Below, in pieces: positions 2,429-20,998 of a DNA stretch of 20,998 nucleotides. The notes beneath the pieces were generated by a model. That model was not told the DNA's origin. It made no database searches and saw only the letters and a program-made list of their open reading frames with translations. Origin of the DNA: a bacterium (GTDB taxonomy: Bacteria > Zhuqueibacterota > Zhuqueibacteria > Oceanimicrobiales > Oceanimicrobiaceae); the NCBI GenBank assembly GCA_046757025.1, contig JBHHXN010000088.1, positions 1 to 20,998 on the forward strand. Direction: 5' to 3'. Each line of letters starts with the position of its first letter. The stretch's first letter is position 1. The translations under genes and the position numbers were made by a program.

Positions 2429-2440
2429 AGGAGGATTATC

Positions 2441-3373: not shown

Positions 3374-3385
3374 TTGCTTGCCATT

Positions 3386-4150
3386 ATGAAGTCTGGTTTA
3401 ATCCGATGGATTCTCCGTTATTGCGCCCGGAAACTGATTTTACCGGGCGTCATTTTTTTAACAGCAGCCGTCATTTTAATCAGCAACTTTTCCTGTGTTT
3501 TACGTGCAATTGCAAAACGCATCGCCTACACTTATCCCGGCTGTATCTTTGATATCGAAACCAGCCAACCGCTACTGGCGCTCACCATCGATGACGGTCC
3601 AGATGCCGCCACCACGCCGCAAATCCTCACGGTACTCAAGCGCTTTCAGGCGCGGGCCACTTTTTTCGTGCTCACCGAGCAGGTCGTGCAAAATAAAAAC
3701 CTGGTCCGGCAAATGATCCAGGCAGGTCATGAGATCGGCAACCATTTAACGCAAGATGAAACCAGCATCGGGCTGCCTTTAGAAGAATTTCAACAAAAAT
3801 TTTTTGCTGCAGATTCGGTGTTGGGAGAGTTTGCCGCTATCCGCTGGTTTCGACCCGGAGGCGGCTTGTACAACGCCTCCATGCTGGATATTGTGGAAGC
3901 CCGCCAGTATCAGTGCGTACTCGGCACCCTTTACCCTCTCGACACCGGCATTCCCTGGGCGTGGTTTACAAAACAGTACATTCTGCAAAACGTGTATCCG
4001 GGTGCCATCATCATCCTGCACGACCGGGGGGCGCGCGGTCAACGCACAGCTCGTGTTCTGGAAGACATTCTTCCCCGGCTGCAACAGCGGGGGTACCGCG
4101 TGGTCACGCTTTCCGATTTGTTGTTGATGGAGAAAATAGTTACGGATTAA
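3386..4150 (+). CDS. Polysaccharide deacetylase (CE4/NodB-like), N-terminally membrane anchored
   Basis: CE4 motifs LTIDDGP, ATFF, GHEIGNH, WFRPGGG, GAIIILHD and GYRVVTLS; hydrophobic N-terminal segment. The start could instead be TTG at 3374. Confidence 0.9.
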   Translation: MKSGLIRWILRYCARKLILPGVIFLTAAVILISNFSCVLRAIAKRIAYTYPGCIFDIETSQPLLALTIDDGPDAATTPQILTVLKRFQARATFFVLTEQVVQNKNLVRQMIQAGHEIGNHLTQDETSIGLPLEEFQQKFFAADSVLGEFAAIRWFRPGGGLYNASMLDIVEARQYQCVLGTLYPLDTGIPWAWFTKQYILQNVYPGAIIILHDRGARGQRTARVLEDILPRLQQRGYRVVTLSDLLLMEKIVTD

Positions 4151-4773: not shown

Positions 4774-5244
4774 ATGGCAGCAAGTATTAAGTTAATCGAT
4801 ATCATCGACGGATTGCACATGCAGGGGGAAGAAAACACTCTTTTTCTCCATAAAAAAACCGGCGACATAATAAACATCACCGAAGAAGATTTTTTGCTCA
4901 GTGAAAGAGATGAACCTCTTAGTGACCTACCTGAATGGCAGCAGGAACAAGTAAAAATCGCCCGCGCGCTGGATGAAACGGACGACTATATTGAGCTTCC
5001 CAATCGTTCTAAAATCAACGACTACGAAATTATGGAGAAGTTCTGTTTGTCCATTACCGACGACACCATGAGAGAAAAACTGTACTATGCCATCAAAGGG
5101 ACAGGTGCATTCAGGAGGTTCAAACAGAAAATACAGGAATTCGGAGTAGTAGATGACTGGCACGAGTTTCGGGAGCAAGCCTACCGTGAAATCGCCATTG
5201 CCTGGTGTAACGATCACCAGATTCCCTTTACCGAATCTGAATGA
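4774..5244 (+). CDS. UPF0158 family protein
   Basis: Acidic 156-aa protein with the pattern FL.KKTG.I, YIELP....DYEIMEKF, L..AIKG.GAFRRFK and W.EFR......A..WC. Confidence 0.88.
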   Translation: MAASIKLIDIIDGLHMQGEENTLFLHKKTGDIINITEEDFLLSERDEPLSDLPEWQQEQVKIARALDETDDYIELPNRSKINDYEIMEKFCLSITDDTMREKLYYAIKGTGAFRRFKQKIQEFGVVDDWHEFREQAYREIAIAWCNDHQIPFTESE

Positions 5245-6158
5245 AATCGTCTGCCACTATGGATTCGGACGACGTCATCGCTGTCGAGGATTTAACCAAA
5301 TACTACGGTCAAATAGTCGGCATTCATCAGCTGAGCTTCACGGTCAAGCATGGAGAAATCTTCGGTTTTTTGGGGCCGAACGGCGCCGGCAAAACCACCA
5401 CCATTCGTCTTTTACTGGACTTGCTGCGCCCCACCAGCGGGAGGGCACATCTGTTTGGGCAGGATATCCGCAGGCATTCTATGGCGATTCGCCAAAAATG
5501 CGGTTATTTGCCCGGCACTTTTTCTGTTTACGGGCACCTGAGTGGCAACGAATTTTTACGACTATTAGCGAATCTCAGAAACAGCGCTGCCCCGATGCTG
5601 GCGCTGCTGTTCGATCGTTTTCAACTCTCAAAATCTGATCTTAATCACAAGATAAAGCATTTATCGCACGGCACCCGTCAGAAACTGGGCATCGTACAGG
5701 CTTTTATGCACCAGCCGCCTTTACTCATTTTAGATGAACCCACCATCGGGCTGGATCCTTTAATGCAGGAAGCGTTTTATGAGTTGGTGCAATCGTCGCA
5801 AAAGCAGGGGCAAACGATTTTTTTCTCTTCTCACAATTTGCCGGAAGTGGAGAAAATTTGTCAGCGGGTGGCCATCATCCGCCGCGGCGAATTGGTGGCG
5901 CTTGAAACCCTGGCAAGTTTGAGAAAAAAAAGGGTGCGGCGGCTTAAATTTAAATTGCGTGAAGCCGTGGCCGACCTGCGCTTGCCGGCGGCGCAATTGC
6001 TCAAAAATCATGATTTGGATTACGAATTCCTGGTGCAAGGTCCGTTCGAAGATTTGCTCAAAAAGTTGGCCACCCTACCCATTGAAGATCTAACTTTTCC
6101 AGAGCCGGACCTTGAAGAAATTTTCATGACGTTTTACCGGAGCGACGAAAGTGAATAG
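5241..6158 (+). CDS. ABC transporter ATP-binding protein (ABC-2/multidrug exporter type)
   Basis: Walker A GPNGAGKTT, signature LSHGT, Walker B LLILDEPT, H-loop SSH and C-terminal EPDLEEIF; ATGA overlap with the upstream gene. Confidence 0.95.
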   Translation: MKSSATMDSDDVIAVEDLTKYYGQIVGIHQLSFTVKHGEIFGFLGPNGAGKTTTIRLLLDLLRPTSGRAHLFGQDIRRHSMAIRQKCGYLPGTFSVYGHLSGNEFLRLLANLRNSAAPMLALLFDRFQLSKSDLNHKIKHLSHGTRQKLGIVQAFMHQPPLLILDEPTIGLDPLMQEAFYELVQSSQKQGQTIFFSSHNLPEVEKICQRVAIIRRGELVALETLASLRKKRVRRLKFKLREAVADLRLPAAQLLKNHDLDYEFLVQGPFEDLLKKLATLPIEDLTFPEPDLEEIFMTFYRSDESE

Positions 6159-6963
6159 GCTGGCTTATCCCCTGTTTATTCTGAAAAATCACCGCGGCTT
6201 TCTCTTGTTCGGCGCCCTGGTAATCGGCGCATTGCAGGCGGTGATCATTGCCTTGATTTCTACCGTCGATACTGCCTCCATCATCACTTTATTATTTGAG
6301 CAGTTACCGCAGCGTTTTCAGGAGTTTATCAACGAATCGTTTTTAGTCAGCTTTTCGGTTAAAGGGGCGGCGGCTTTTGGCCTTAACCATCCATTTGTGC
6401 TGGCTTTGTTGGCTATCAGCGCCATTCACATTCCCAATCGCCACATCGCCGGCGAAATCGAAAGCGGCACCCTGGAACTCATGCTGGCCCAACCCTTTGA
6501 GCGCACTCGGCTACTTCTGTGGCTCTGGTTTTCCGGCGGCGTTTTGCTGCTGGGAATCATAAGCGGCGGCCTGCTGGGATCCCTCTCTGCACTTGCCGCC
6601 ACCGACAACCTCTCGGGCGCTTTGCTCATAAAAATGCTGCAAATCGCCGCCAACCTCTGGATGCTTTTCGTTTTCATCATGAGCTACACCTTGCTGATGG
6701 CCACCTTCAGCGGCGAAGGCAGTAAAATCGGCATGCAAAGCGCCGGAGTGACGTTTTTGTTTTTCTTCCTTTACCTGTTCAGCACCCTTTGGGACGGACT
6801 CAAGTTTACGCAACCGTTCAATTTTTTCAGCTACTACCAACCACAGAAGTTGATGTTTGGACAGCAAAGCTTCGGAATGAATGTTTGCGTACTCTCAGGC
6901 TTAATTGCTATTAGCCTGTTCATCAGTGTGCGGCAATTTAATCGGCGGGATATTCCGGGATAA
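6151..6963 (+). CDS. ABC-2 type transporter permease
   Basis: About 6 hydrophobic helices, coupling motif IAGEIESGTLELMLAQPFER, PFNFFSYY and C-terminal FNRRDI. GTG start overlaps the ATPase stop. Confidence 0.9.
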   Translation: MNRLAYPLFILKNHRGFLLFGALVIGALQAVIIALISTVDTASIITLLFEQLPQRFQEFINESFLVSFSVKGAAAFGLNHPFVLALLAISAIHIPNRHIAGEIESGTLELMLAQPFERTRLLLWLWFSGGVLLLGIISGGLLGSLSALAATDNLSGALLIKMLQIAANLWMLFVFIMSYTLLMATFSGEGSKIGMQSAGVTFLFFFLYLFSTLWDGLKFTQPFNFFSYYQPQKLMFGQQSFGMNVCVLSGLIAISLFISVRQFNRRDIPG

Positions 6964-7773: not shown

Positions 7774-8169
7774 ATGACTAATAGAAATTTATTTGTCATA
7801 TTTATTTTTTTGGCAACGGCCCTTGAAGTGGGCTTTGCCCAGGAACCCCCGTCATCGGATCCCTGTGCAGAAGCCACAACTACCCTGGAGATGCAGGAAT
7901 GTCTGCAAGTGCGTTACGAAAAGGCCGATGCCGACCTGAATCTAGTTTACAAACTGCTCAAGTCAAAATTGAGTGAACGTCGCCAAATAAAACTGCAAGC
8001 AGTTCAGCGCGCATGGATCTTTTTCCGGGATAAAAGCGCGGAGTTTGAAGCCAGCGAGGAAGAAGACGGCAGCATGTATCCCCTGATTTATCAACTGACG
8101 CTGGCAGAAATGACGGAAAAGAGAGTTGAAAAACTCAAGCAACTCATCCAACGAATTGACAAACCATAA
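7774..8169 (+). CDS. Secreted lysozyme inhibitor LprI family protein (DUF1311)
   Basis: Sec signal peptide (MTNRNLFVIFIFLATALEVGFA/QE) and the pattern C.EA.TT.EM.EC....Y.KADADLN.VY..L ... LQAVQRAWI.FRD..AEF ... GSM...... MT..R...L. Confidence 0.88.
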   Translation: MTNRNLFVIFIFLATALEVGFAQEPPSSDPCAEATTTLEMQECLQVRYEKADADLNLVYKLLKSKLSERRQIKLQAVQRAWIFFRDKSAEFEASEEEDGSMYPLIYQLTLAEMTEKRVEKLKQLIQRIDKP

Positions 8170-8213
8170 GTAATTAATTCAGGACAAAAATCAAAATACA
8201 TGGAGGAATGATT

Positions 8214-9050
8214 ATGCCAAATTCAGTCTTGAAATTCCGAGATGGATTTAACGATACATCGCCTCATCAGCGCGATGAGGTTAAAAGGTTACAAAAAGCC
8301 CTGCAAAAAGCCGGTTTCGATGTGGCAGCGGACGGCCTGTTTGGTCAAGGCACGCAAAACGCCGTGCGCAGTTTTCAATCGCAGCACAGTCTGGAGGCCG
8401 ACGGAGTGGTGGGCAGCCAAACCTGGCAGGCGCTTACCGGCGCAGACGAGGCGTCTAATAATGGCGGCGCTTCCGCCTCGCTGGATGGCTTCCGGGGCAA
8501 TTTGAGCTGGATTCATGCACGTGAAGGGCATGCCGGAAAAGCTTACTGGCCCGGCGGCGCTTCCGGCGTCACTTTCGACCCCGGGGTGGATTTGGGACAC
8601 GCCCGTCCGGAAATGATCAAAACCGCTTACAAAGATTTTTTAAATTCCGAACAAATGACCGCCGCAGAAACGGTTTTCGGCATTAAAGGGAAAGATGCTA
8701 AATCCGCTTTGGAAGGGAATGCCGTACTGCAAACCATTCGCATAAACCGAGAGCAAGCAGACGCCGTTTTTCCGTTGGTGATCGAACCCTACTGGCAGGC
8801 CATTTCAAATCGTTTTCCTGCTCTGGCGGATTCCGACACGCTGCCTTCGGTGCAGACCGCTTTGCTTTCTATTGCCTACAACCGCGGGGCTCGCAACCAG
8901 GCGCTGGAGGGACTCAATCAGCCCCTTGCCAGCAAAAACTGGGCACAGGTTGCAGATGTCATCGGCGCCATGCAGCAAGACCACCGGCTGGAAGGCATCC
9001 GTAAACGTCGCAGAATGGAAGCTGATTTGATCCGAAATGAGCTGGCATAA
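8214..9050 (+). CDS. Peptidoglycan-binding domain + pesticin C-terminal-like muramidase
   Basis: N-terminal PG_binding_1 (VKRLQKAL...DGLFG..T..AVRSFQ..HSLEADGVVGSQTWQAL); catalytic-type motifs IHAREG and SGVTFDPGVDLG; VQTALLS.AYNRG and RRR.EADLI. GGAGG (8202-8206) favours ATG at 8214; no signal peptide seen. Confidence 0.85.
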   Translation: MPNSVLKFRDGFNDTSPHQRDEVKRLQKALQKAGFDVAADGLFGQGTQNAVRSFQSQHSLEADGVVGSQTWQALTGADEASNNGGASASLDGFRGNLSWIHAREGHAGKAYWPGGASGVTFDPGVDLGHARPEMIKTAYKDFLNSEQMTAAETVFGIKGKDAKSALEGNAVLQTIRINREQADAVFPLVIEPYWQAISNRFPALADSDTLPSVQTALLSIAYNRGARNQALEGLNQPLASKNWAQVADVIGAMQQDHRLEGIRKRRRMEADLIRNELA

Positions 9051-9386: not shown

Positions 9387-9950
9387 ATGAACAATGACCA
9401 TTCTGTTGTTGAAGCAAAAACTGCTGACAAAGCGGTAAAAAAGACGCCGGCCGCAGCAAACGCAATCGGTTCGCCAACAAATGGCAAAATCCTGGAAGTT
9501 AAAATTGATTTCATAAAAAAAGAAATAGAAAGCGCTATCCGGAAATTCAACAAAAAACAAAGACGCAACAGCAAATTCGGCTACATTGTGAAAATGCTGG
9601 CGTTGACTTTTTCGGCCATCGTCACCATCCTTCTGGGATTGAATCTGGAGCCGGCGACGATCTTCAAAAACATCGCTCTGGTGATTTCAGCTTGCACCGG
9701 TGTAGTTGCCGGCATCTCGGCCTTCTTCGATTTTAACGAGCTGTCCATTAAATACAAAGACACCGTTGACAAACTGGAGCTGCTCAAGGTAAAGTTGAAT
9801 TACATCGAGCTGGACAGAGACCACGTGGATTTCGCCACCATCGACAAAATTAAGGACAATTATCTGCGGGTACTGCAACAAACACATGAGTATTTTCAAT
9901 CTGTGCGGAAAGATCAAGGAGCACAGACAAAGACCAGCACGGATCAGTAG
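9387..9950 (+). CDS. SLATT/DUF4231-like two-TM protein
   Basis: Basic helix, two adjacent TM helices (MLALTFSAIVTILLGL; IALVISACTGVVAGISAFF), then F.EL..KY.....LE.LK helical tail. GGAGG RBS upstream. Confidence 0.72.
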   Translation: MNNDHSVVEAKTADKAVKKTPAAANAIGSPTNGKILEVKIDFIKKEIESAIRKFNKKQRRNSKFGYIVKMLALTFSAIVTILLGLNLEPATIFKNIALVISACTGVVAGISAFFDFNELSIKYKDTVDKLELLKVKLNYIELDRDHVDFATIDKIKDNYLRVLQQTHEYFQSVRKDQGAQTKTSTDQ

Positions 9951-10003
9951 GTTCCTTATTCCGTTTGTTGTACACATTTTTTGAATAATTTGGAGTGTTT
10001 ACC

Positions 10004-12103
10004 ATGACACGTCGCATGACACTTATTTTGCTTTGCCTGGCTGGAAGGTTTTTTGCCGAACTCTGGCCGGCAGCACAGCCCCAACTGTTTGCGCAACCGG
10101 TTTTGAGAAAAGTTGAAACGGTGGAAAAAGCCCGGGCCGGCGAAAAAATCTGGCTCACTTTGAAGGGGCTAAATTTTCAACATGTGAATCGTATCGACTC
10201 GGTCAAAATTGGCGATTTGCATACTGAAGTCATGTCTTTCAGAAAAGAATCCGACAGACAGCTTAGCGTGCAGATTTTGATTCCTGAAGATGCTGAGCCG
10301 GGTCGTCACAAAATCGCCATTCTGGTTTCAGGCGAAATGTTCGAAGGTTGGTTGAATGCCCCCTCCCCGTTTGCTTCTGCCGGGCCGCAAATGGAGGTCT
10401 TTATGGGCATCCAATTGTTGCAGTCCGGCAACTCGCAGAGCCTCGTGTTTGAGGAAACGACGGTGGGTTCCCCTGTTAGCAAACGGTTCAGAATCGACAA
10501 TATCGGTGCGGAGCCTTTGCTCCTGAACCGGCCGGAGATTCCAGCAGGTTTTCGCCTGATGGGGTCGTTTCCCGAACAAATTGGCTCAGGAAGCAGTGCT
10601 TTTTTTTATATTCAGATGGCGGCCCAATCCGAGGGACGTTTTGAAGGAATATTTCGCTTTTCAAACAACGATGAAAATGCCCGGCTTTTTCAAATACCAT
10701 TATCCGGCTCAGTGAAGGCGGCTGCTGTTGCGCAAAGTCCGCGGCCGGTTTTACAATCCGTTGAGACCGTTCGTGTGCGAGCGGGCGCCGTCGGGGAGAT
10801 CACTTTACGAGGCAGCCATTTGCGGGCGGTGGAAAAAGTAGAAGCCGTGCAAATCGGCTCCATGCAGGCAGAGGTGCTGCAATACACGACCCCGTCGGAT
10901 GAGGTCATGCGCGTGCAAGTGCGCGTTCCCAGCGAAATGATAGCGGGACACCAGGAAGTCGCGCTGCAGGTCTCCGGAAGCGGTTTTCGATTCTGGCTGA
11001 AACCCGAGGGTTCCCAAATCACCGATCGAACTCACGAGAATAGGCCGCTACCCGGCATCGACGTACTGCCATCGGCTTCCGTGCGCCCTCAACAAAGCAA
11101 TCCTCCAATATTGTTTCATGTCACGGCCCCCGCCACTGACTCCGTGGAGGTCATTTGGCTCGCGCTGCACGGAAGCCACTTTCTGCCTTCTCATCGAATT
11201 ACGAGCGTTGAAATTGGCGGACGAGAGTTTCCGGTACACATTTCTGTCGTAGAATCCGCTGATCTGATTCGAGTTCAAATTCATGGTGCCGAAAAGTTGC
11301 CAGGGGGTGAGCAGGCGTTTGCAGCTCTGTTCCAAGGTGCGGAATTTGAAGCCTGGCTAAGGCCCACTCGGGAAGCAACGGTGCAACTGCCCAGCCTTGA
11401 AAATGCCCCATTCGGCAACATTTTTGAAACGGTTGCTGGTCGCGGTCGGAGTTTGATTCGGACAGTGCGAGCCATCCTGCCAGTCAAAATTGCGGCGTCT
11501 GAGTCCTGGTGGTGGCTGCCCATCGCCGCAGTCGCCTTGCTGCTGGTGGCGGTGCCCGGTACTGCCGTAGCGATAAGAAAACGCGGTGTTCATCTGAATA
11601 AATCTCAGCAGCCGACATCCTCAAATGCACCGGTCGTTCAATTTAAACCCAAAAAAAATCTGGGTTCGCAGCTCATCAAAGAAAGTCAGCCGATTAAAGT
11701 CCTTTTTGAGCTGCGCGTAAAACCGCTGCTGGATGTCGGAAAAGTAAAAATGCAGCACCAGGGATCCTTGATTGCACAGGAAAAATCTAAAAAAATAAAG
11801 CCCCTAAAGGCAGTTGCGAAAACGAAACCAAAGCCGCAATCCGCCGATGATTTAAAACGCATCGAAGGCATTGGTCATAAAATTTCCGGGCTGCTGCAAG
11901 GGTCGAAAATCCAGACTTTTGCCCAGTTATCTGCAACCGATGTGGCCCGACTACACGAAATCTTAAAACAAGCCGGCATCACCATCGCCGACCCCGCTTC
12001 CTGGCCGCAACAGGCAAAATTGGCGGCAGCGGGTAAATGGCAGGAGCTCGACAAACTACAGGCAAAACTCAAAGGCGGGCGCTACGTAACTGCCGTTTCT
12101 TAA
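10004..12103 (+). CDS. Membrane-anchored Ig-like repeat protein with C-terminal helix-hairpin-helix (DUF4332-like) domain
   Basis: Signal-like N-terminus; three ~90-aa internal beta repeats; a choice-of-anchor-D/ASH-like Ig domain (F.ETTVG.PVSK.F.I.N.G...L...SNND....IPLSG); TM helix WWWLPIAAVALLLVAV..RKR; C-terminal DDLKRIEGIG.KI...FAQL...DP.SWP.QAKLAA.GKW...LKGGR. GGAG at 9992-9995 favours ATG at 10004. Confidence 0.75.
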   Translation: MTRRMTLILLCLAGRFFAELWPAAQPQLFAQPVLRKVETVEKARAGEKIWLTLKGLNFQHVNRIDSVKIGDLHTEVMSFRKESDRQLSVQILIPEDAEPGRHKIAILVSGEMFEGWLNAPSPFASAGPQMEVFMGIQLLQSGNSQSLVFEETTVGSPVSKRFRIDNIGAEPLLLNRPEIPAGFRLMGSFPEQIGSGSSAFFYIQMAAQSEGRFEGIFRFSNNDENARLFQIPLSGSVKAAAVAQSPRPVLQSVETVRVRAGAVGEITLRGSHLRAVEKVEAVQIGSMQAEVLQYTTPSDEVMRVQVRVPSEMIAGHQEVALQVSGSGFRFWLKPEGSQITDRTHENRPLPGIDVLPSASVRPQQSNPPILFHVTAPATDSVEVIWLALHGSHFLPSHRITSVEIGGREFPVHISVVESADLIRVQIHGAEKLPGGEQAFAALFQGAEFEAWLRPTREATVQLPSLENAPFGNIFETVAGRGRSLIRTVRAILPVKIAASESWWWLPIAAVALLLVAVPGTAVAIRKRGVHLNKSQQPTSSNAPVVQFKPKKNLGSQLIKESQPIKVLFELRVKPLLDVGKVKMQHQGSLIAQEKSKKIKPLKAVAKTKPKPQSADDLKRIEGIGHKISGLLQGSKIQTFAQLSATDVARLHEILKQAGITIADPASWPQQAKLAAAGKWQELDKLQAKLKGGRYVTAVS

Positions 12104-12160
12104 AAAATTTTCAGCACAAGTAAACTCATTTTAACAACTCATCCCGAAAAGGAATTTGTC

Positions 12161-12790
12161 ATGACCAATAGCCTCACTTCGTTGAATCAATTTTTTGTCA
12201 TCGATGACCTCTCAAAAAAGCAAGTATCGCAATTAACCCAATCCCGCGGTTTCGAGGCCATCAAACAGAAGTGGTCCAAAAAATTAAAAGGCGTGCCCGT
12301 CAGCAAAGGCCTCGTTGAACAGTTGGTAAGGCCGCTCAGCGATTTACTGAATGTAGATTTACGGGCGATTCTGGTTGGCGCCTGGAGTCAATCCAATGAG
12401 CTGGCAAAATTTCTTGACCCGGAAAAATATCCACCAGGGGAAACACAGATCGTTTCTTTAACCGAGCACACACTGACCTCCACGCACCAGCCGGTTTTGA
12501 AACCGTATATCAACAAAGTGGCGCTGGGACAAATCAAATTCAACGTGCTTCTGGAGCTTACCCTCAAAGGCGCGAATTTAAAAATTCAGGATGGCAAAAT
12601 TATGGAAGCCACCCTGGGTTCCTGTCAGGGCCATGGTTCGGTAAAATATGAGGATTATGCTCTAATTGAAAAAGAGCTGCAGGAGCTCACTTTACCCGGC
12701 ACCATCAAACTCGGAGACGGCATTCCTTTAAAGCACCCGCTCAAGGACGTGCATCAGTTTGTGAGCAATTTAAAAGAAGCATCCTTTTAA
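12161..12790 (+). CDS. Hypothetical protein (soluble; helical N-terminus, beta-rich C-terminus)
   Basis: 209-aa ORF with AAGGA RBS, co-directional with the upstream gene and followed by a hairpin; no functional motif recognised. Confidence 0.8.
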   Translation: MTNSLTSLNQFFVIDDLSKKQVSQLTQSRGFEAIKQKWSKKLKGVPVSKGLVEQLVRPLSDLLNVDLRAILVGAWSQSNELAKFLDPEKYPPGETQIVSLTEHTLTSTHQPVLKPYINKVALGQIKFNVLLELTLKGANLKIQDGKIMEATLGSCQGHGSVKYEDYALIEKELQELTLPGTIKLGDGIPLKHPLKDVHQFVSNLKEASF

Positions 12791-12797
12791 ACCGCGC

Positions 12798-12838
12798 CAA
12801 TGGCTCAAACACAGTTTGAATCTGTGATTGAGCCATTG
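12798..12838. terminator. Hairpin between convergent operons, possible bidirectional terminator
   Basis: caatggctcaa (12798-12808) pairs perfectly with ttgagccattg (12828-12838); inner stem cacag/ctgtg. Lies between stops at 12790 (+) and 12855 (-); no clear U-tract. Confidence 0.6.
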
Positions 12839-12854
12839 CCCGATTTGGCGACGC

Positions 12855-13532
12855 CTACTCCAGATACGATTTGCGGCGGACAAAAATGTACAAGCTATAG
12901 CCGGATAGCCACACAGCCGTGAGGTTTATCAGCAGCACGCCGGCTCCGGAAAAATACAACTGTACAAAGGCGTGGCGATCGATTAAAAAAGACCGGCTAA
13001 ACAGCCCCAGAAAATCCATATAAGAATACAGCAAAAAATAACCAGCAAACCCCATCAAAAACCAGACGGCGTGCAACACAATCCGATCCTTTTGCCGCAA
13101 GAAACAGCTTTTCAAGTCGTGATAAATACTAAAGCCGGCGTACCCGAGAAGAATTAACCCGTTGATAGGCAGCAACGCCCAGAACACATTTACACCTGGC
13201 ACAGTCGGTTCGACCAGCAGCAAACTCGCAAAAAACAACCCCACTATGCTCAGCCAGTACACCACCGTGAATATCAGCCGCAACAGACCGATCTGGAAAG
13301 TTGTCAGCGGTATCCGCAAATGATAACGTATCCGTTTGTTTTTGGTTTTTTCAAATTCCCCACTGAAACGGCCAAAAAGCGTGGCAGCCCACAGCGCGAT
13401 GGAGATATCCCGCACAAAATGTTCTGGCTTACCCCATACTGCCACGATGGCAAATAAAGTGACGTAAAGAAGATATCCCAGAACAAGATAAATTTTATTG
13501 TAATTGATTTCGGCCCTCAAAAGGTTCCACAT
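12855..13532 (-). CDS. Multi-TM membrane protein, putative ABC-2-type permease; paralog 7 of the array
   Basis: MWNLLRAEINY start, KNKRIR...IP...RL motif, HDL motif and RRKSYLE end; about 6 hydrophobic helices. Confidence 0.85.
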   Translation of the reverse strand: MWNLLRAEINYNKIYLVLGYLLYVTLFAIVAVWGKPEHFVRDISIALWAATLFGRFSGEFEKTKNKRIRYHLRIPLTTFQIGLLRLIFTVVYWLSIVGLFFASLLLVEPTVPGVNVFWALLPINGLILLGYAGFSIYHDLKSCFLRQKDRIVLHAVWFLMGFAGYFLLYSYMDFLGLFSRSFLIDRHAFVQLYFSGAGVLLINLTAVWLSGYSLYIFVRRKSYLE

Positions 13533-13597
13533 TTTTTATCGCCTTTAACTACATCAATTGTTTTTATTAAACCAAATGGCAGCCATCCAGTTTTCCT

Positions 13598-14908
13598 TCA
13601 TTTATAGCGAAGCCATTTAACGGCTTCTTTGACAGACGGTTTTTTACCGTACATCAAAATACCCACGCGATAAATTTTCGCTACGAACCAGATCATAATG
13701 ACGATGGAGATCATCATCGTAAAAGGCGATAAAATGGCGCCCGAAGGAAGAATGGGATCGCTCACGGCAATTCTGGCAAACATCACCATGGGAGTAAAAA
13801 ACGGCACCAGCGACACCCAGAATGCCATGGTGGTATCGGGATTTTTGATCACCGTGAACATAATAAAATAACCGATAATCACTAAAAAAATGAGCGGCAT
13901 CTGGTACTGCTGCCCTTCGTCGTCGGTGCTGACGATGGCGCCCACTGCAGCAAACAAGGTCGAGAAGAAAACGAAACCCATCAAAAAGAACAGGATGAGA
14001 AACGCAAACACCACGGGTGAAAAATGAATCTGTCGAATCATTTCCAGAAAAGCCGGCGCGGTCACTCCAAATTTCACAAACAAAGGCTCGCCATACTGCA
14101 CAGCAAAATAAATAAACACACTGATAATGGTTAGCTGAGTGAGCCCAAGGGCGCAGATGCCGATGATTTTGCCCACCATGAGCTCCACGGGTTTCAGAGA
14201 CGCTACGATGGTTTCGGTGATGCGCTGGCTCTTTTCTTCGATGACGCTGCGCATCATGGTCTGGCCGTAAATCATGATCATGAGCAGCAATATGTAGGTC
14301 AGAATGTAGGTGAGGGCAAAGCTCGAAACCCCGCTTTTTTTAATTTCACCCGTTTCCGTAACCTGACTGCTCACCAGCTTGACGCGTCCCAGGGACATCT
14401 CCTGGCGTACTTTCTCGGCTGAGAGTCCCATGTTTTCTAACCGGTAATTAACCACAATGCGCGACAAGGCGTTTCGCAGGTCGCGCTGCTCGTCAAAATC
14501 GCTGACGCTGCGGGCAGAATATTTCACCTGGCGGCTATCCACGATATCGTGTGGAATCACCAGATAGCCGTGTATCTTTTTTTGCCGCACCAAATCCTGA
14601 TAATCCGACATGGCGGTTTCTAGTTCATCATCGGGTACTATTTTTTGGGTGAAGGTATATTTTGGTTGGCCGTTTTTTAACGTATCCGGGAGCATTCGCA
14701 CAAATTCGCTGAAAATGCGACCGGTTTGATCCACGACAAAGTAGTGGCGTGTGGAGGGTTGAAAAAACTTTGCAAAAATAAAAATGCCGGCAAAAACAAA
14801 AACCAGAATCAAAGGGAACAACATGGTGCCGATGATAAATCCTTTGGTTCGCACCCGTGTGACGTATTCCCGACTGATGACCGCTAATATTTTTTTATTC
14901 ATTTCCAT
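13598..14908 (-). CDS. ABC transporter permease, NatB/YhaP-like
   Basis: KILAVISREY.TRVRTKGFII, large extracytoplasmic domain, IYGQ..MRSVIEEKSQRI.E, GKIIG, S.VPFFTP.VM..R and AKIYRVGILMYGKKP. Confidence 0.92.
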   Translation of the reverse strand: MEMNKKILAVISREYVTRVRTKGFIIGTMLFPLILVFVFAGIFIFAKFFQPSTRHYFVVDQTGRIFSEFVRMLPDTLKNGQPKYTFTQKIVPDDELETAMSDYQDLVRQKKIHGYLVIPHDIVDSRQVKYSARSVSDFDEQRDLRNALSRIVVNYRLENMGLSAEKVRQEMSLGRVKLVSSQVTETGEIKKSGVSSFALTYILTYILLLMIMIYGQTMMRSVIEEKSQRITETIVASLKPVELMVGKIIGICALGLTQLTIISVFIYFAVQYGEPLFVKFGVTAPAFLEMIRQIHFSPVVFAFLILFFLMGFVFFSTLFAAVGAIVSTDDEGQQYQMPLIFLVIIGYFIMFTVIKNPDTTMAFWVSLVPFFTPMVMFARIAVSDPILPSGAILSPFTMMISIVIMIWFVAKIYRVGILMYGKKPSVKEAVKWLRYK

Positions 14909-15827
14909 TGGCTCCCGAGTTAGTTTGATTCACCGATTCAATAAAAATCTCATTCAATGAAGGCTCCTTGATTTCAAATTTATGAATGATTGCAGACTGC
15001 ATGGCTTCTCGTAAAAGCTGCTGGGTGTCGGCATTTTCTGTTAATTCCACCTCAGCCGTATTGCCAAATTTGTCTGCTTTTTTAATTTGCCGCGACTGAC
15101 TCAAAAACGCATCGCTGCCGTCAAACTCAATGAGCACATGATGGCTGCCGAAACCGGCTTTGACATCGCTCAATTTACCTGACAACACTTTCTGTCCGTT
15201 ATTTATGAGAAATATGTCTTCGCACAGTTTTTCAGCGCTCTCCATAACGTGCGTTGAAAAAATGAGGGTGGTACCGTCGGCTTTGAGCTCAAGCATAGCA
15301 TCTTTGATGAGATTGGTGTTGATGGGATCGAGACCACCGAAGGGCTCATCTAAAATCAACAACTTTGGGCGGTGCAGCACCGTTCCGATATACTGTATTT
15401 TCTGCTGCATACCCTTGGAAAGCTCTTCGATCTTTTTGCTTTTCCAGGCCATCAGTTCAAATTTTTCCAGCCACAAGTCGATTTGCTTTTTCGCCTCCGA
15501 CCTTTCCATAGATTTCAGTCTGGCCAGAAACAGCAGCAGTTCCCCCACTTTCATTTTGCGGTAAAGGCCTCTTTCTTCCGGTAGATAGCCCACGTGGTCA
15601 TTTGCGCTCACCGGATTCGAATCGCCTAAAACAGCGATTTGTCCGCTATCCGGAATGATGATGTTCATGATCATGCGGAGAGTGGTGGTTTTGCCCGCGC
15701 CGTTGGGACCGATTAGACCGAAAATTGTGCCTGCTTCGATGGCAAAAGACACTTCATCCACAGCTTTAAAATCTCCAAAACTTTTACAGATCTTTTCAAC
15801 TTCGAGTACTTTCATATTTACACTCAT
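14895..15827 (-). CDS. ABC transporter ATP-binding protein, NatA/YhaQ-like with C-terminal DUF4162-type domain
   Basis: GPNGAGKTT, GYLPEERGLY, LSKGMQQK, LILDEPF.GLDP.N, STH and EPSLNEIF. Alternative start at 15815. Confidence 0.95.
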   Translation of the reverse strand: MSVNMKVLEVEKICKSFGDFKAVDEVSFAIEAGTIFGLIGPNGAGKTTTLRMIMNIIIPDSGQIAVLGDSNPVSANDHVGYLPEERGLYRKMKVGELLLFLARLKSMERSEAKKQIDLWLEKFELMAWKSKKIEELSKGMQQKIQYIGTVLHRPKLLILDEPFGGLDPINTNLIKDAMLELKADGTTLIFSTHVMESAEKLCEDIFLINNGQKVLSGKLSDVKAGFGSHHVLIEFDGSDAFLSQSRQIKKADKFGNTAEVELTENADTQQLLREAMQSAIIHKFEIKEPSLNEIFIESVNQTNSGANGNE

Positions 15828-15944
15828 CCATTTTAATGGTTAAAATATAAAGCCAACTGTTCTACGCTTTTTTACGCCTTTCTTGATTATTCATTCAAAT
15901 AAAATTTTACGCCGAGCAAGCTACAGCCTCCTTTGCCGAGCGCA

Positions 15945-16571
15945 TTAATCGATGTAAGATTTTCGTGTTTCGAACGTTTTTACAGCGGGATACAATAGTA
16001 CTATGCCGGCCCCTAAACACATAACTCGAATAATCTTTCCAGTTGTCTCCCAAACGGAAGCCAGCCCCAGTGGAATTCCCAGCAGGATAGTCGAGATCAA
16101 AATGATAAATATCACCAGATCGAATTCGACACTATTAAATTTATTCAACCATGAATGCAGCAAATCCAACAGCACAAAATAAATAGAGCAGCCAAACAGA
16201 ATCAAACCCAAAAACATTAAAAGATCATAAATATCGTGCTGCCATCTCGGACTGACATTTTTAAGAAAAAAATACAGTAAAAAATAAATGCCAAAATACC
16301 ACACACAGGGTAAAAGAAACAACAGCAATCGCGATACCGCGAGTTGACGAATAGAAATGGGCAAAATCACCACTTGCCGGTTGCGTTTCTCAATAATCCA
16401 GAAAATCACCAATTGTAAAATTGTGGCAATGGTGAGAGGAAAGACCATAGTGTTGACGCCGGCGGTTTCGCTGATGCGAAAATAAAACAGCATACCCGGA
16501 ATGATTATCGCTAAAACTAAAACGATGTTTTTATAAACATACAACAGTTCGGCTTTTAAGATACGCCACAT
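15945..16571 (-). CDS. Multi-TM membrane protein, putative ABC-2-type permease; paralog 6
   Basis: MWRILKAELLY start, EKRNR...LPIS...RL, LDL and RKSYID end; GGAG RBS upstream. Confidence 0.85.
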   Translation of the reverse strand: MWRILKAELLYVYKNIVLVLAIIIPGMLFYFRISETAGVNTMVFPLTIATILQLVIFWIIEKRNRQVVILPISIRQLAVSRLLLFLLPCVWYFGIYFLLYFFLKNVSPRWQHDIYDLLMFLGLILFGCSIYFVLLDLLHSWLNKFNSVEFDLVIFIILISTILLGIPLGLASVWETTGKIIRVMCLGAGIVLLYPAVKTFETRKSYID

Positions 16572-16582
16572 AAATATTACTC

Positions 16583-17275
16583 CTATTCAAGGTATGATCT
16601 ACGTTGATTAAAAATATAAAGATTTGAGAGTGTTAAGCCTGCACCAGTTAGTAGAAAAAATAATGATCCCAGCGGCTTCCAGGCAAAATGATCAAAGTAC
16701 ATTTTTAGCTGAGCAACAGGTTCAAGCGGGTTAAATGGGAAATAACGTGAAATTGCTGATACGCTAAAGAAAAGCGTAACCGACATCAGGACGACCACAT
16801 AAATGGCAGTTAAAATGAGCAACTGATATTTTCCTGTCAAATAAAATCTTAAATCGCGGTGAATAAAAGGAAAAGCATTGGCTGCCATCATGAGACCCGT
16901 TACCGACAACAGATACCAAACGATAGAAACATGAATGGCTTGCGGTCGAATAATTGTCAGAGCAATCCAGAAAATGCCTGACGAGGCCAGCCAAAAAGTA
17001 AGGATGAATAACAGTCGCATCCAGGCAATGTTCTGGAGTGACTGCGGTAACTGAATATAGACGCGGTCGGATTTTTCCTTTATCATTCTGAGTATTCTAA
17101 AAAACAATATTACGATATTCGTAGTCACCATAATGGTGCTCAACCCGGGAACATCCCGGTTGACCGATGTCCATCCCCAGCGCAGAACGCCAATGGCCGC
17201 GAAGAGAACAAACAAAATTCCCAGCAGGAGACCCAACTTCTGGTATTCAATTTCTGACTTTAGTAGCTTCCACAT
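16583..17275 (-). CDS. Multi-TM membrane protein, putative ABC-2-type permease; paralog 5
   Basis: Start reassigned to MWKLLKSEIEY (ATG at 17275) by homology with the neighbours; EKSDR...LPQS...RL, RDL and RRSYLE end. Confidence 0.85.
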   Translation of the reverse strand: MWKLLKSEIEYQKLGLLLGILFVLFAAIGVLRWGWTSVNRDVPGLSTIMVTTNIVILFFRILRMIKEKSDRVYIQLPQSLQNIAWMRLLFILTFWLASSGIFWIALTIIRPQAIHVSIVWYLLSVTGLMMAANAFPFIHRDLRFYLTGKYQLLILTAIYVVVLMSVTLFFSVSAISRYFPFNPLEPVAQLKMYFDHFAWKPLGSLFFLLTGAGLTLSNLYIFNQRRSYLE

Positions 17276-17336
17276 AAATTCGATCTTTTTAACCTTGTTT
17301 TGAATAATCAAACAAATTCAATTATCTACCTCACAC

Positions 17337-18026
17337 TTACCCAAGATAAGACTTGCGCCAGCCAAAGCTGAATACAGTCGTGAAAGCCAGTACAAAGCTG
17401 GCGAGCACAAAAATGATTAACTGAAATTCCGTTGCCGGCGGTTCTGCCAATAAATTTATTTTGTCGAGATAGTGAATCACCACCAAAAAATTTTTATCGA
17501 GATTTTTTTGCAGCACGGTGAGGACGAAAGCATAAATGGTCAGAACATTAACCACCAGGACCATAACGATGACCACGCCCCTGATTTTAGAACTTTTATG
17601 CAAAAACAAGACTTTAAAGGAATCACGCCACAAATCTCGTATCACAAAATAAATGGTAAAACCGACCAGGATGATGCCGGGATAAGCGATCAATTTTATC
17701 GGCTCCTGCGGAATTCGAAAATTGAATAATAAATAAATTATGAAATAAATCATACTAACACTCAGACAGGCCAGTACAATTATGACGAGCCGCGCCAGCG
17801 CCAATTGTCGGTTAGAAAGGGGTAAACGCGTGACTTGATAATCCCGTTTTTCTCTGTTCCGGTGAATATTCCAGAAAACGGTCAGCATGTAACTGGCGAT
17901 CAAAGTATAGCCGATTCTAATTTCCGAAATGGCAAGTTCATAACAACCCACTAACAGGATGAAGCTGAAACATCCAAAAATCAACTTTTGGTTATAACGA
18001 ATCTCCGCTATGATTATTTTTAGCAT
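17337..18026 (-). CDS. Multi-TM membrane protein, putative ABC-2-type permease; paralog 4
   Basis: Start MLKIIIAEIRY (ATG at 18026, AGGTGAG upstream); EKRDY...LPLS...RL, RDL and RKSYLG end. Confidence 0.85.
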   Translation of the reverse strand: MLKIIIAEIRYNQKLIFGCFSFILLVGCYELAISEIRIGYTLIASYMLTVFWNIHRNREKRDYQVTRLPLSNRQLALARLVIIVLACLSVSMIYFIIYLLFNFRIPQEPIKLIAYPGIILVGFTIYFVIRDLWRDSFKVLFLHKSSKIRGVVIVMVLVVNVLTIYAFVLTVLQKNLDKNFLVVIHYLDKINLLAEPPATEFQLIIFVLASFVLAFTTVFSFGWRKSYLG

Positions 18027-18038
18027 CTCTCTCACCTA

Positions 18039-18713
18039 TCAAACATAAAATCGCCGCTTGCCAAATGTCCACACCGGAAATGCTGCCACTGCCGAAATCA
18101 CAATTAAAAACGTAACTTTACCATAGGTAGTGATAAGCGGGTGGCTGTTATTTACGAATTCAATCAGGCTTTCTAACCAAGCTGTCGGCCGACCGGCTTG
18201 ATAGGTTTGCACCATCACCAGGAGACCAAGAAGATTCAATCCCAGAAATATCACCATACATGCCATTCTCAATCGATTGCGTGTAATTCCTATTTTTCTG
18301 AAAAAGTCCCCAGATAATTCATTCAACTCGTAAACAATGGAAAATCCCAAAATCAGACATGCGGAAACCAAAATTAACGGGAGAGGATTGAATGGTTGTG
18401 GTAAGGGCAAAATTGCCTGAATCAAAGCAGATAAAAATATCACCGTCGCACAGTAAGGGAAAATCATGGCGATTCGTACTACCCCAATTTGGAGGGCTGG
18501 CAGCGGATTGATTTGGAAAAAATAATCTCGTTTCTCACGACTTCTAAAATTGTACCAGTTTTGCGGGAACAGGTACAAGATCATGAATAGGATAAAATAG
18601 GCGGAATTTAACCGATCGATAGCTTCGATAATTTTTACGTAAACAACGATAAACGTGATTCCAAACAAGATATTTTTATGATAATTAAACTCTGCTCGTA
18701 GTATCTGCCACAT
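18039..18713 (-). CDS. Multi-TM membrane protein, putative ABC-2-type permease; paralog 3
   Basis: MWQILRAEFNY start, EKRDY...PLP...RI, NEL and KRRFYV end; GGAG RBS upstream. Confidence 0.85.
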   Translation of the reverse strand: MWQILRAEFNYHKNILFGITFIVVYVKIIEAIDRLNSAYFILFMILYLFPQNWYNFRSREKRDYFFQINPLPALQIGVVRIAMIFPYCATVIFLSALIQAILPLPQPFNPLPLILVSACLILGFSIVYELNELSGDFFRKIGITRNRLRMACMVIFLGLNLLGLLVMVQTYQAGRPTAWLESLIEFVNNSHPLITTYGKVTFLIVISAVAAFPVWTFGKRRFYV

Positions 18714-18724
18714 TTTTTACTCCG

Positions 18725-19368
18725 TTATTCTAAATATGAATGTCTTCGTTGAAAGGTGCGCATTCTTAAAAACACCAATCCAATCCAGATAAAAGTTAAG
18801 ATAGTCGCTCCCATAAACGAGTCCATAAGGATTCTTTGTATCAGCGAGTTGCTGCAATTATATATCAAAGCGAAAAATATGACCGACATGAACAGTGTTA
18901 AGCTAAACCAATAGATCAAATAAAGCCTACAAAGAGCTTTTTCTTAACTGTAGCAAAACGTACATCCTGCATGATTAGATACCCAAAACTAAAAATCAAA
19001 GTCAGACTTGAAAAGGTCATCAATCCACTAAAAGGTGCGATATCATTTGCCAATTGTGAACGCTCAACAATCGCCTGGGTGGCCCAGGCTGAAATCATGA
19101 TGATGTTAAATAACACCACAAATAACAACATTTTTAAGGTGCTCTGTGTTCTGCTTGACACGGGTAAACAGAAGTGCTGTCGTGTGCGTGTTTCTTTGGC
19201 GTCACGGCCAAATAGCGCGGCAAAACACAAGACTAATGGCATCCCGAAAATCGTGTACAAACCCGCCCGGTCGATGAGATACAGCAACCAGATGCCGATT
19301 GTGACAAATGTGGCCAGACACAGCGCCTTTCGATTGTAATTCAATTCTGATTTAATCATTCTCCACAT
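18725..19368 (-). pseudogene. Frameshifted/split multi-TM membrane protein; paralog 2 (ORFs 18916-19368 and 18725-18919)
   Basis: The first ORF has the family start MWRMIKSELNY and ETRTR...LPVS; the second carries the family end RRHSYLE. Adding one base in the T5 run at 18938-18942 fuses them into a 214-aa protein. Confidence 0.75.
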
Positions 19369-19380
19369 AGCTCAATCAAT

Positions 19381-20034
19381 TCACGATTGGTAAGATTTAC
19401 GGTGCAAAAAGAAATGATGGCTCAGGTAAAACATTCCCACACAAATAGAATTGTAGATAAAAGCGTCTAGAAATGTTTTCTGAGTTTTGTTTCCAAAACT
19501 TATATGTTCAGGCTTTAAGTAACCTTTATCTATAAGTACTACACCACTCATTATGAATATAAATAAAATAGTAACATACATAATACGATATTTTTTTAAC
19601 TGCCCAAAACCCAAATCGTGAAACTGAAAAATAAAGTTCATAAGGATCAACAAAATCGCATTTATGGCAGACATATACCATATCGCCTGATTGTCATGAC
19701 CCAAATGTCCAAGAAAAAAGACGACTCCCCATAGAAATACCATGCCTGATTGAAACAGAATCAAAGACATTAAACGAACACGACTGATCTGTTTTAGCGT
19801 AACCGGTAAACGAAGGAAATATCGGTCCCGCTTTTCGTTATCGCTTTGTATGCCCATAATGATAGCAGAAACGACAAGTATTACCGAAGTGATGACCGAG
19901 AAGCCATAAATCCCCTCTATGTCTGGTTCGATATTTCCAGTCCTGTCAAGAAACAGATATATAATTGCAATAGTATAAGCAAAACTCACCATGAATTTAT
20001 TATAAATGAATTCCGCTTTCAGGATTTGCCACAT
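19381..20034 (-). CDS. Multi-TM membrane protein, putative ABC-2-type permease; paralog 1
   Basis: MWQILKAEFIY start, EKRDR...LPVT...RL, HDL and RKSYQS end; GAGG RBS upstream. Confidence 0.85.
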   Translation of the reverse strand: MWQILKAEFIYNKFMVSFAYTIAIIYLFLDRTGNIEPDIEGIYGFSVITSVILVVSAIIMGIQSDNEKRDRYFLRLPVTLKQISRVRLMSLILFQSGMVFLWGVVFFLGHLGHDNQAIWYMSAINAILLILMNFIFQFHDLGFGQLKKYRIMYVTILFIFIMSGVVLIDKGYLKPEHISFGNKTQKTFLDAFIYNSICVGMFYLSHHFFLHRKSYQS

Positions 20035-20077
20035 GATTGACCTCTCAAGGCAGGTTCATTATTTTGATTTCTAATTT

Positions 20078-20965
20078 TCATATCTTCAAAGGCATTCTGC
20101 CTCCCTCTTTAAGTATCTGCACGGCGATTTCATCGATGGTCAGGCGGCTTTCCTGAACGTTTTCAATTCCCAGATCGGCAAGTTGCTTCAAGGTGATCTC
20201 GCGATTGGAACTGATGACCTGGTGATCGTTGCCTTCATGCTGATGGCTCACAATGGCGTCTAACCTTACATTATTTTCCGTAAAACGGAAAGAGATTTTT
20301 CGCCACTGGTCCGTCAAGTCATTTATGCCGGATCGCAGCTTGATCCTGCCGTTGTCCAGAAACGCCAAGTCGTCGGCCAGGCGGCTGATATCCGACAAAA
20401 TGTGCGTGGAGTAAAAAATGGCACGCTCGCCATCTTCCAGCACCTGAAACAGCACATCCAGCACTTCGGTGCGCACCACCGGATCCAGGCCGGCGGTGGG
20501 CTCGTCCAGCAGCAGCAATCTGGGTGAGTGCGCCAGAGCCGAAATCAAGGACAGCTTCACCCGGTTCCCGCCTGAAAGCTCCTTTGCTTTTTTGTGCAAG
20601 GGAATGACAAATCGTTCGGCCAGCTCCTGCACCAGCCGGTCAGACCAATTCGGATAAAACTGGGAAAGAAATTTCAGATTTTTCTCGCCGGACCAGTTTT
20701 CATAGAAAACATGCACGTCTCCCACATACCCGATGTCAAACTTCCAGGCGGGCTTATTGGGATCGTTTCTCCGGCCAAATATTTCCATCTCCCCGCTGTC
20801 AGCTTTGAGAAGTCCCACCAGACAGTGCATGGTGGTGGTTTTGCCGGAGCCGTTGGGCCCGATGTAACCAAGCACGGTGCCGGGCGCTAATTCCAAATTT
20901 AACGGACCCAGTTGAAAGTCTGGAAAGGTCTTAACCAGATTTTTGATACTAAAGGCATTTGGCAT
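20078..20965 (-). CDS. ABC transporter ATP-binding protein (YtrB-like exporter ATPase)
   Basis: GPNGSGKTT, LSGGN, LLLLDEPTAGLDP and STH; GAGGAG RBS at 20973-20978. Confidence 0.95.
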   Translation of the reverse strand: MPNAFSIKNLVKTFPDFQLGPLNLELAPGTVLGYIGPNGSGKTTTMHCLVGLLKADSGEMEIFGRRNDPNKPAWKFDIGYVGDVHVFYENWSGEKNLKFLSQFYPNWSDRLVQELAERFVIPLHKKAKELSGGNRVKLSLISALAHSPRLLLLDEPTAGLDPVVRTEVLDVLFQVLEDGERAIFYSTHILSDISRLADDLAFLDNGRIKLRSGINDLTDQWRKISFRFTENNVRLDAIVSHQHEGNDHQVISSNREITLKQLADLGIENVQESRLTIDEIAVQILKEGGRMPLKI

Positions 20966-20998
20966 AATTTATCTCCTCTGTTTAGGTTCTTTTTTCTC

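Follow-up and report, generated by a model that had tools for sequence, protein, structure and literature searches.

A probable YtrA-controlled ABC exporter operon in which one conserved ATPase gene precedes a tandem array of diverged, type V-like membrane subunits

Background

Why a single gene for an ABC (ATP-binding cassette) ATPase should be followed by a long row of highly diverged membrane-protein genes is the question raised by a 20,998-nt stretch of bacterial DNA, the entire contig JBHHXN010000088.1 of assembly GCA_046757025.1 (contig C88 of genome G000; hereafter the window). The sequencing runs containing this DNA are hydrothermal-vent metagenomes. An earlier note, made from the sequence, had proposed that seven paralogous permeases pair interchangeably with one ATPase and would resemble an immunity or specificity repertoire against peptides, toxins or phages. 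Our analyses support, with a probability of roughly 0.65, an ABC exporter operon under a YtrA-type regulator, in which one conserved ATPase powers several old, separately kept type V subunits for different membrane-active compounds. In this study we describe the array and its relatives, assess the fold and the regulation of its members, and weigh the contrasting explanations of its repertoire.

A family of tandem permease genes

All the genes of the array lie on the minus strand. The ATPase gene at its head (ATPase1, 20078-20965; 295 aa, an ABC ATPase domain, PF00005, with a C-terminal extension) is followed by six permease-like copies, namely copy 1 (19381-20034, 217 aa), copy 2 (18725-19368), copy 3 (18039-18713, 224 aa), copy 4 (17337-18026, 229 aa), copy 5 (16583-17275, 230 aa) and copy 6 (15945-16571, 208 aa). 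Behind them stand a second ATPase gene (ATPase2, 14895-15827; 310 aa, PF00005 and PF13732, with a DrrA-type C-terminal domain) and its partner, a 436-aa ABC2_membrane_3 permease (13598-14908; PF12698, E 1e-47) which we take to be NatB-like, and copy 7 (12855-13532, 225 aa) follows this pair. As had been read from the sequence, the six copies run head-to-tail after ATPase1 with four of the five spacers being only 11-12 nt long (12, 11, 12, 61 and 11 nt), and the short anchors MW..L.AE..Y, EKR.R....LP......R, DL and RKSY are real and present in the paralogs. The further statement that there are seven intact multi-transmembrane paralogs of ~208-230 aa stands as regards their paralogy and number, but not their integrity, copy 2 being frameshifted.

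The seven copies are 22-29% identical to one another over long stretches, with BLASTP E values of 1e-5 to 1e-25 for most pairs; the match between copies 3 and 5 is restricted to short ends. A profile built from the seven recovered those seven loci only in a genome-wide search, and the ABC2_membrane_3 permease, showing no significant match to any of them, falls outside the paralog family. A 20-bp inverted repeat (12798-12838) in the gap that separates copy 7 from the gene converging on it is likely the terminator that ends the operon; promoter and terminator scans of the locus gave results at chance level.

Fold and family assignment

Two of the seven copies, 5 and 7, were modelled with AlphaFold from alignments of 149 rows (pLDDT 95.5 and 92.8, respectively). 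Both models contain an N-terminal elbow helix, six transmembrane helices (TM1 to TM6), TM2 being followed by a short coupling helix, and a helix in the last outer loop. When compared with 48,161 chains of known structure, the top 12 matches of copy 5 and the top 16 of copy 7 were all ABC exporter membrane domains, with about 200 residues aligned. For copy 5 they included the Rv1217c-type mycobacterial pump 8k1m (Z 13.2, rmsd 3.7, 210 residues aligned), CcmB (Z 12.4), PmtD (Z 11.8) and NosY (Z 11.8), and for copy 7 CcmB (Z 12.4) and PmtD (Z 12.1); across both models NosY scored Z 11.1-11.8, and ABCG and ABCA proteins were also among the top matches. Foldseek gave TM scores of 0.56-0.61 to NosY and PmtD, at E >0.001. 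Because the matches are consistent and full-length, a Z of this size being by itself middling for helical proteins, copies 5 and 7 are predicted to adopt the type V (ABC-2) membrane fold, in agreement with the fold that had been suggested for them.

The nearest Pfam profile is PF13346 (ABC2_membrane_5), whose cut-off of 25 bits is reached neither by copy 1 (24.1 bits, E 3e-5) nor by copy 6 (16.6 bits, E 0.006), the other copies giving no match; it is matched by 16 of 80 family members at E <= 0.001 and carried by 39% of the members of a neighbouring ESM Atlas cluster. Most family members lack a curated-level Pfam or NCBIfam match, and searching the sequences of the PDB with a profile of 80 members turned up no relative (best E 0.069). 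Two known transporter families were rejected as a home for the locus: the LanFEG immunity transporter, for which copy 1 scored 15.5 bits against the 145 of TIGR03732 and ATPase1 109.5 against the 310 of TIGR03740, and whose profiles gave weak matches in 2/80 family members; and Pmt, the exporter of phenol-soluble modulins (PSMs), since the best NCBIfam match of ATPase1, PmtA, scored 191 bits where the cut-off of NF047565 is 350.

Distribution and copy number

Matches to the family were found in 32 of the 167 genomes of the phylum (G000 included), in 14 of the 105 that are near-complete, and in 3 of the 20 other genomes of the family to which G000 belongs. The family comprises at least 876 clusters at 50% identity; a word-indexed protein search, which returned seven matches only, under-reports it. 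The permease alignment contains no conserved stretch, and loci were therefore collected by using the ATPase as an anchor, the best 80 of 106 being retained, partly from the same genomes as the phylum survey. The titles of these ATPase-anchored loci name Calditrichia, Ignavibacteria, Gemmatimonadota, Latescibacterota, Aminicenantes and Thermoanaerobaculia, according to submitters' labels, some of which conflict.

Full-length copies per locus numbered one in 29 of the 80 loci, two in 22, three in eight, four in ten and five in six, with six and nine in one locus each (both truncated) and none in three (all truncated). When the count was restricted to the 56 loci whose sequence extends 2 kb or more past the last copy, the corresponding figures were one (23), two (14), three (6), four (8) and five (5). 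The seven copies of G000 lie near the top of a continuous range of 1-9, and the idea of one ATPase with a variable permease repertoire is borne out by these numbers and by sets that vary across loci. At the other end of the range, no small multi-transmembrane paralog follows in the 23 single-copy loci, two of which are followed by other multi-transmembrane open reading frames (ORFs), and such operons show that one subunit type suffices.

Many relatives have, behind the array, a gene for a second ATPase and one of the ABC2_membrane_3 type. Other genes were also observed inside arrays or right after them (L023:2263-4350, L032:4234-6338, L026:8193-12574, L021:8486-9870): an S41 peptidase with a LolA-like protein (G099, the same pair standing after the array in G115), an ECF-type sigma factor with a beta-lactamase-family protein (G144) and a PEMT-type methyltransferase with Yip1 (G149).

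The ATPase and the regulatory head of the operon

ATPase1 is 52-86% identical across the 80 loci. In 25 aligned orthologs its Walker A motif, D154/E155, D161 and H188 are invariant, LSxGNR is the signature, and D stands at the Q-loop position in all 25. With Walker A and B, D-loop, H-switch and signature intact, the operon encodes the ATPase that a type V exporter requires, and this enzyme is likely the shared motor of the array.

In the MbrR-MbrAB system of Streptococcus salivarius, the ATPase MbrA captures a YtrA-type repressor when the permease meets bacteriocins (bioRxiv 10.64898/2026.02.18.706565). The spacing of D198 (invariant), D/E215 (24/25) and D216 (23/25) from the Walker B Glu of ATPase1 resembles that of MbrA D195, D210 and D212, a likeness noted with MbrA unaligned and with D198 being a generic position. 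An Arg in the VQRAY helix, a generic residue that may be the counterpart of MbrR R53, occurs in 25/25 GntRs.

The window ends 33 nt upstream of ATPase1 (leader, 20966-20998, minus strand), and the regulator genes sit on another contig of the same genome, C182, to which this leader joins. Homologs of the genes found upstream of the array in relatives were identified at the start of C182, reading toward the contig end. The two contigs overlap by 8 nt; a contig from sequencing run X1 that covers window positions 12500-20998 runs into C182 positions 1-30, and one from run X4 into positions 1-33. These bridging lengths are at or slightly below our bridging rule, and the join is consistent with the gene order in relatives. 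On C182, Pfam domains define a GntR-GAF-SpoIIE (PP2C) gene (489-1997, 502 aa), the first of the operon, and a YtrA-type GntR gene (103-486, 127 aa; PF00392), the second. Rfam gave no match in the window or in C182:1-2600.

What defines the YtrA subfamily is the small size of the GntR, its place next to an ABC transporter, and a long palindrome (PMC6746942, PMC4494728). The operon presents a GntR of 127 aa and, 58 nt upstream of its first gene, the long palindrome ACTGTA-N13-TACAGT, with GT/AC far from the centre; a YtrA regulator is generally, not strictly, the first gene, a place taken here by the PP2C fusion. The B. subtilis operator, AGTGTA-N13-TACACT, is similar. The exact core CTGTA-N13-TACAG occurs twice in the G000 genome, the other occurrence (C147:9978) having inner bases unlike the operator consensus. 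With one mismatch allowed, 49 of the 72 testable loci have the operator close to their first GntR-type gene; control windows yielded it in 18 of 1,339 cases.

GntR-type genes are present in 77/80 ATPase-anchored loci and the GntR-PP2C fusion in 46/80, in a form of ~345 aa (no GAF-length spacer) and one of ~502 aa (the size of the G000 protein on C182). The N-terminus of the GntR-GAF-PP2C protein is ~51% identical to a stand-alone GntR of this family, and the acidic PP2C motifs, largely intact in the 20 relatives examined and visible in the G000 protein, suggest that it acts as a phosphatase. More than 20 SpoIIE/PP2C-like domains are encoded in the G000 genome. Altogether, the array bears those hallmarks of a type V exporter under YtrA control that sequence and predicted fold can reveal, and it is not a Pmt, a LanFEG or a cut-off-level PF13346 system.

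Age of the copies and selection

The evolutionary analysis covered 196 copies, 166 of them in multi-copy genomes, and its trees, obtained quickly with IQ-TREE or FastTree, have long branches. Best within-genome identity for the 166 copies had a median of 22%, and the nearest relative stood in another genome for 159 of them and in the same genome for seven. A single clade of the seven G000 copies was rejected (AU p 2e-28, on a 47-sequence subset of the 196), several of them grouping with copies from other classes or phyla. The copy 1 subfamily also occurs in G020, G134, G158 and other genomes, copy 4 is 45-46% identical to a copy in L055, and copy 6 is 64% identical to its ortholog in G017. Recent tandem duplication is ruled out by these other-genome nearest relatives and by the rejection of the clade.

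Clustering at 30% identity yielded 93 clusters among the 196 copies, and only 7/50 multi-copy loci hold two copies of one cluster. The order of subfamilies was kept in 32 of 34 pairs co-occurring in at least two loci. Congeners hold mostly one-to-one orthologs, with losses (six copies in G099, five in G101, and two in G100, which lacks the second); the contigs of both G100 and G101 end soon after the array.

Orthologous permeases gave whole-gene dN/dS ratios of 0.10-0.29 in 15 of 19 pairs, the other four being saturated. The ratio was 0.05-0.14 in ATPase1, 0.20 in the NatB-like permease and 0.17-0.22 in GntR-PP2C. Among strain variants, 2/9 were non-synonymous in copies 1-6 and 4/5 in copy 7, the most of any copy, although the numbers are small; one ATPase variant was excluded as probably derived from contigs of other organisms. 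No repeat family was tied to gene ends within 12700-20998, no cassette repeats were found between copies, and no recombinase occurred among the genes scanned (22 in the window, and sampled neighbours in relatives). As judged from these sequence comparisons, the repertoire changes slowly, as old subunits, each conserved in its own right, are gained or lost, and no sequence arms race is apparent.

The frameshift in copy 2

Copy 2 consists of a 150-aa ORF (18916-19368) and a last third that continues in the -1 frame (18725-18919). The junction is best placed at codons 142-150, at or just past an A-rich run, which is as fine a placing as the sequence permits. Contigs from three of four sequencing runs (X1, X2 and X4, all of one study, X1 being possibly the source) cross the break without an indel, and because they agree the break is not merely an error of this assembly. 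It falls at or just after G-AAA-AAG, which we take to be a candidate slippery site. Programmed -1 frameshifting was therefore considered, but as no stimulatory hairpin was found (-6.5 kcal/mol versus -7.2 +/- 2.4 for shuffled sequences) and the intact relatives in G161-G164 show no break, the loss of one base is the simpler reading. Nine internal permease fragments were detected in 7/80 ATPase-anchored loci, where draft-assembly errors may explain them.

Where the sequences vary

Once mapped on the topology, as the earlier note had proposed, conservation among 149 diverse members proved to be concentrated on the predicted cytoplasmic, ATPase-facing parts: it amounted to 0.60 in the elbow, 0.48 in the coupling region and 0.63 in the C-tail, compared with 0.23-0.38 in the TM helices and 0.16-0.20 in the outer loops. 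The lumen of PmtD is framed by TM1, TM2 and TM5 (PMC12623860). We compared the corresponding helices with the remaining ones in 189 sequences, with TM numbers read off the model rather than from a superposition. In 32 disjoint close pairs TM1/2/5 and TM3/4/6 were equally conserved (0.634 vs 0.638), whereas in distant paralogs TM1/2/5 were the less conserved (0.119 vs 0.155; bootstrap -0.050 to -0.024). Positions constant within subfamilies and different between them were concentrated in TM1/2/5 and in the first extracellular loop (ECL1), while ECL2 and ECL3 vary at every depth. This modest pattern is as expected if subfamilies differ in substrate.

Proposed mechanism and rival explanations

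In the exporter that we propose, the GntR would repress the operon at ACTGTA-N13-TACAGT, and each subunit would dock on ATPase1 via its elbow helix, coupling helix and C-tail. Subunits would act as homodimers, perhaps with a few fixed heterodimers (the copy-3 type with the copy-6 type). Amphipathic compounds, antimicrobial peptides for instance, might enter the TM1/2/5-lined lumen from the membrane and then be expelled, as in PmtCD, and lineages would shift their range by gaining or losing whole subunits rather than through fast divergence of their sequences. Were the array to behave as MbrRAB does, transport might in addition lift the repression, and the permeases on the one ATPase would then feed a single switch with multiple inputs; the PP2C fusion, through its YtrA-like head, is a conceivable second output. 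A bolder version, tentative and rather unlikely, would make the locus a multi-input envelope sensor-pump: up to nine type V subunits, as homo- or heterodimers on one ATPase, would each detect a different membrane-active compound, and the loaded ATPase would capture both the YtrA repressor and the GntR-GAF-PP2C head, linking efflux to a partner-switching stress response in the Gram-negative KSB1, Calditrichota and Ignavibacteria.

Several points weigh against the exporter with many subunits on one motor. The binding of the copies to ATPase1 is predicted from sequence and modelled fold, and the nature of the substrate purely by analogy; among the 22 window genes and, in relatives, 47 selected neighbours, no bacteriocin or other biosynthetic genes were recognised. 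The motor of copy 7 may be ATPase2, and with copy 2 broken G000 has at most six full-length subunits. Conserved cytoplasmic motifs are to be expected in any ABC-2 permease family, and the alignment in which they were scored, being profile-selected, is partly circular. A Z of 11-13 can be reached by helical bundles by chance, even though the matches found are consistent and full-length. Finally, the difference between lumen and scaffold is small (0.04) with distant pairs near saturation, and the combination ECL1+TM2 (20/31 untied pairs) was picked after the data had been seen.

An unlikely alternative in our estimation is that the array, rather than being a freely mixing set, amounts to two or three ordinary transporters with an ATPase gene in common, each a fixed heterodimer in the manner of YtrB2CD, which has been modelled as one (PMC11466899). 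Two-gene sets are indeed stable within genera g71 and g79, and members of both the copy-3 and the copy-6 subfamily are present in G000, G012, G017, G063, L053, L055 and L067, although plain co-inheritance may account for their co-occurrence and L070 has a copy of the copy-3 type with none in the copy-6 cluster. Fixed pairing is harder to reconcile with the single copy present in 23/56 complete loci, with the odd copy numbers that are common, and with subfamily 85, which stands alone in four loci and with different partners elsewhere.

Still less probable is a poly-immunity cassette locus under arms-race selection, quickly diversifying and swapping its members against specific toxins or phages, which comes closest to what the earlier note had envisaged. 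The large number of clusters at both identity levels, the patchy distribution within the family of G000, subfamilies shared across phyla, and a tandem repertoire that varies between related genomes are what such a locus would display, and the broken copies and the excess of non-synonymous variants in copy 7 could be read in the same way. Nonetheless, the dN/dS of the permeases, about 1-4 times that of ATPase1, resembles those of the NatB-type permease and GntR-PP2C and gives no sign of diversifying selection at the whole-gene level; broken copies in drafts may be assembly errors, the ATPase of G012 being split too, and copies other than copy 7 carry few non-synonymous variants. Low dN/dS, old subfamilies, a kept order and the lack of cassette repeats speak against a rapidly diversifying repertoire, and nothing in the analysis points to phages. 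The least probable of the explanations considered is that the copies are mostly redundant, or serve regulation or sensing without transport, in an array that grows and decays neutrally. The frameshifted copy 2, the 135/167 phylum genomes without a match (many of them incomplete) and the non-transport roles of some ABC systems (PMC7828314) would be compatible with such neutrality, against which stand the purifying selection on each ortholog lineage, the persistence of subfamilies across phyla and the rarity of recent duplicates.

Other features of the window

The remaining genes described here lie on the plus strand. Between 7774 and 9950, an LprI lysozyme inhibitor (7774-8169), a peptidoglycan-binding protein with a pesticin/phage-lysozyme-like part (8208-9050) and a SLATT-domain protein (9387-9950) together look like a lysozyme-inhibitor pair beside a putative SLATT membrane effector. 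They are followed (9995-12790) by a protein of 702 aa that has Ig-like domains (TIG, choice-of-anchor D), a single TM helix and a DUF4332-like domain at its C-terminus, and then by one of 209 aa that matched neither Pfam nor NCBIfam. A separate ABC-2 unit (4774-6963) comprises an ATPase (5241-6158) and an ABC2_membrane_2 permease (6151-6963) behind a UPF0158 gene. The genes at 1970-4150 encode NfeD, a band-7 (stomatin/flotillin-like) protein and a polysaccharide deacetylase; a flotillin is included in the MbrR regulon (bioRxiv 10.64898/2026.02.18.706565). Positions 1-181 hold a dispersed, MITE-like repeat of ~120-180 nt with a long hairpin, which gave 19 BLAST matches on 15 contigs at 85-93% identity and no Rfam match.

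Comparison with known systems

A literature search covering few subscription journals and no supplementary tables found no paper on this permease family, on its tandem arrays, or on a GntR-SpoIIE/PP2C fusion with an ABC transporter. Motor sharing as such has precedents: in the multitask nucleotide-binding domains of type I importers and in ECF modules, one motor serves several membrane partners. Those systems are importers, in contrast to the YtrA-controlled type V exporter of the array.

Among exporters, MbrRAB resembles the array in that its operon, which has a palindromic operator, unites a YtrA-type repressor, an ABC ATPase and a permease, and in a proposed model of how membrane-active peptides are sensed and expelled. 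It differs in its Gram-positive host and in having one permease per MbrA, other transporters there having their own ATPases and operons, whereas the array family reaches nine permeases; no GntR-PP2C is described in the part of that report available. PmtABCD of Staphylococcus aureus, whose regulator is PmtR, shares the type V fold, as judged from the matches of both models to PmtD, has in PmtA the top NCBIfam match of ATPase1, and likewise holds two ATPases per operon; it differs in having one permease per ATPase and in a membrane domain only ~10% identical, and ATPase1 stays below the PmtA cut-off. PmtCD expels PSMs and gives protection from LL-37 (PMC9974410), a peptide that is also bound by the YtrA-type regulator ClnR (bioRxiv 10.1101/347286). 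No PSM-like peptide genes were recognised at our locus, where no search specific to them was made.

The ytrGABCDEF operon of Bacillus subtilis, which responds to cell-wall antibiotics (PMC7828314), has a GntR repressor, two ABC ATPases and the type V exporter YtrB2CD with two permeases (PMC7828314, PMC11466899). The array differs from it in its 1-9 permeases, and in a second transporter of the ABC2_membrane_3 type instead of the type VII YtrEF. YtrA-controlled type V exporters are known from Gram-positives, with one or two permeases per ATPase, while the array family carries up to nine, in poorly studied Gram-negative phyla. If its subunits share the ATPase, they would constitute a natural library of how TM1, TM2 and TM5 encode type V specificity with a constant motor interface, and would provide a test of whether ABC exporters can assemble combinatorially.

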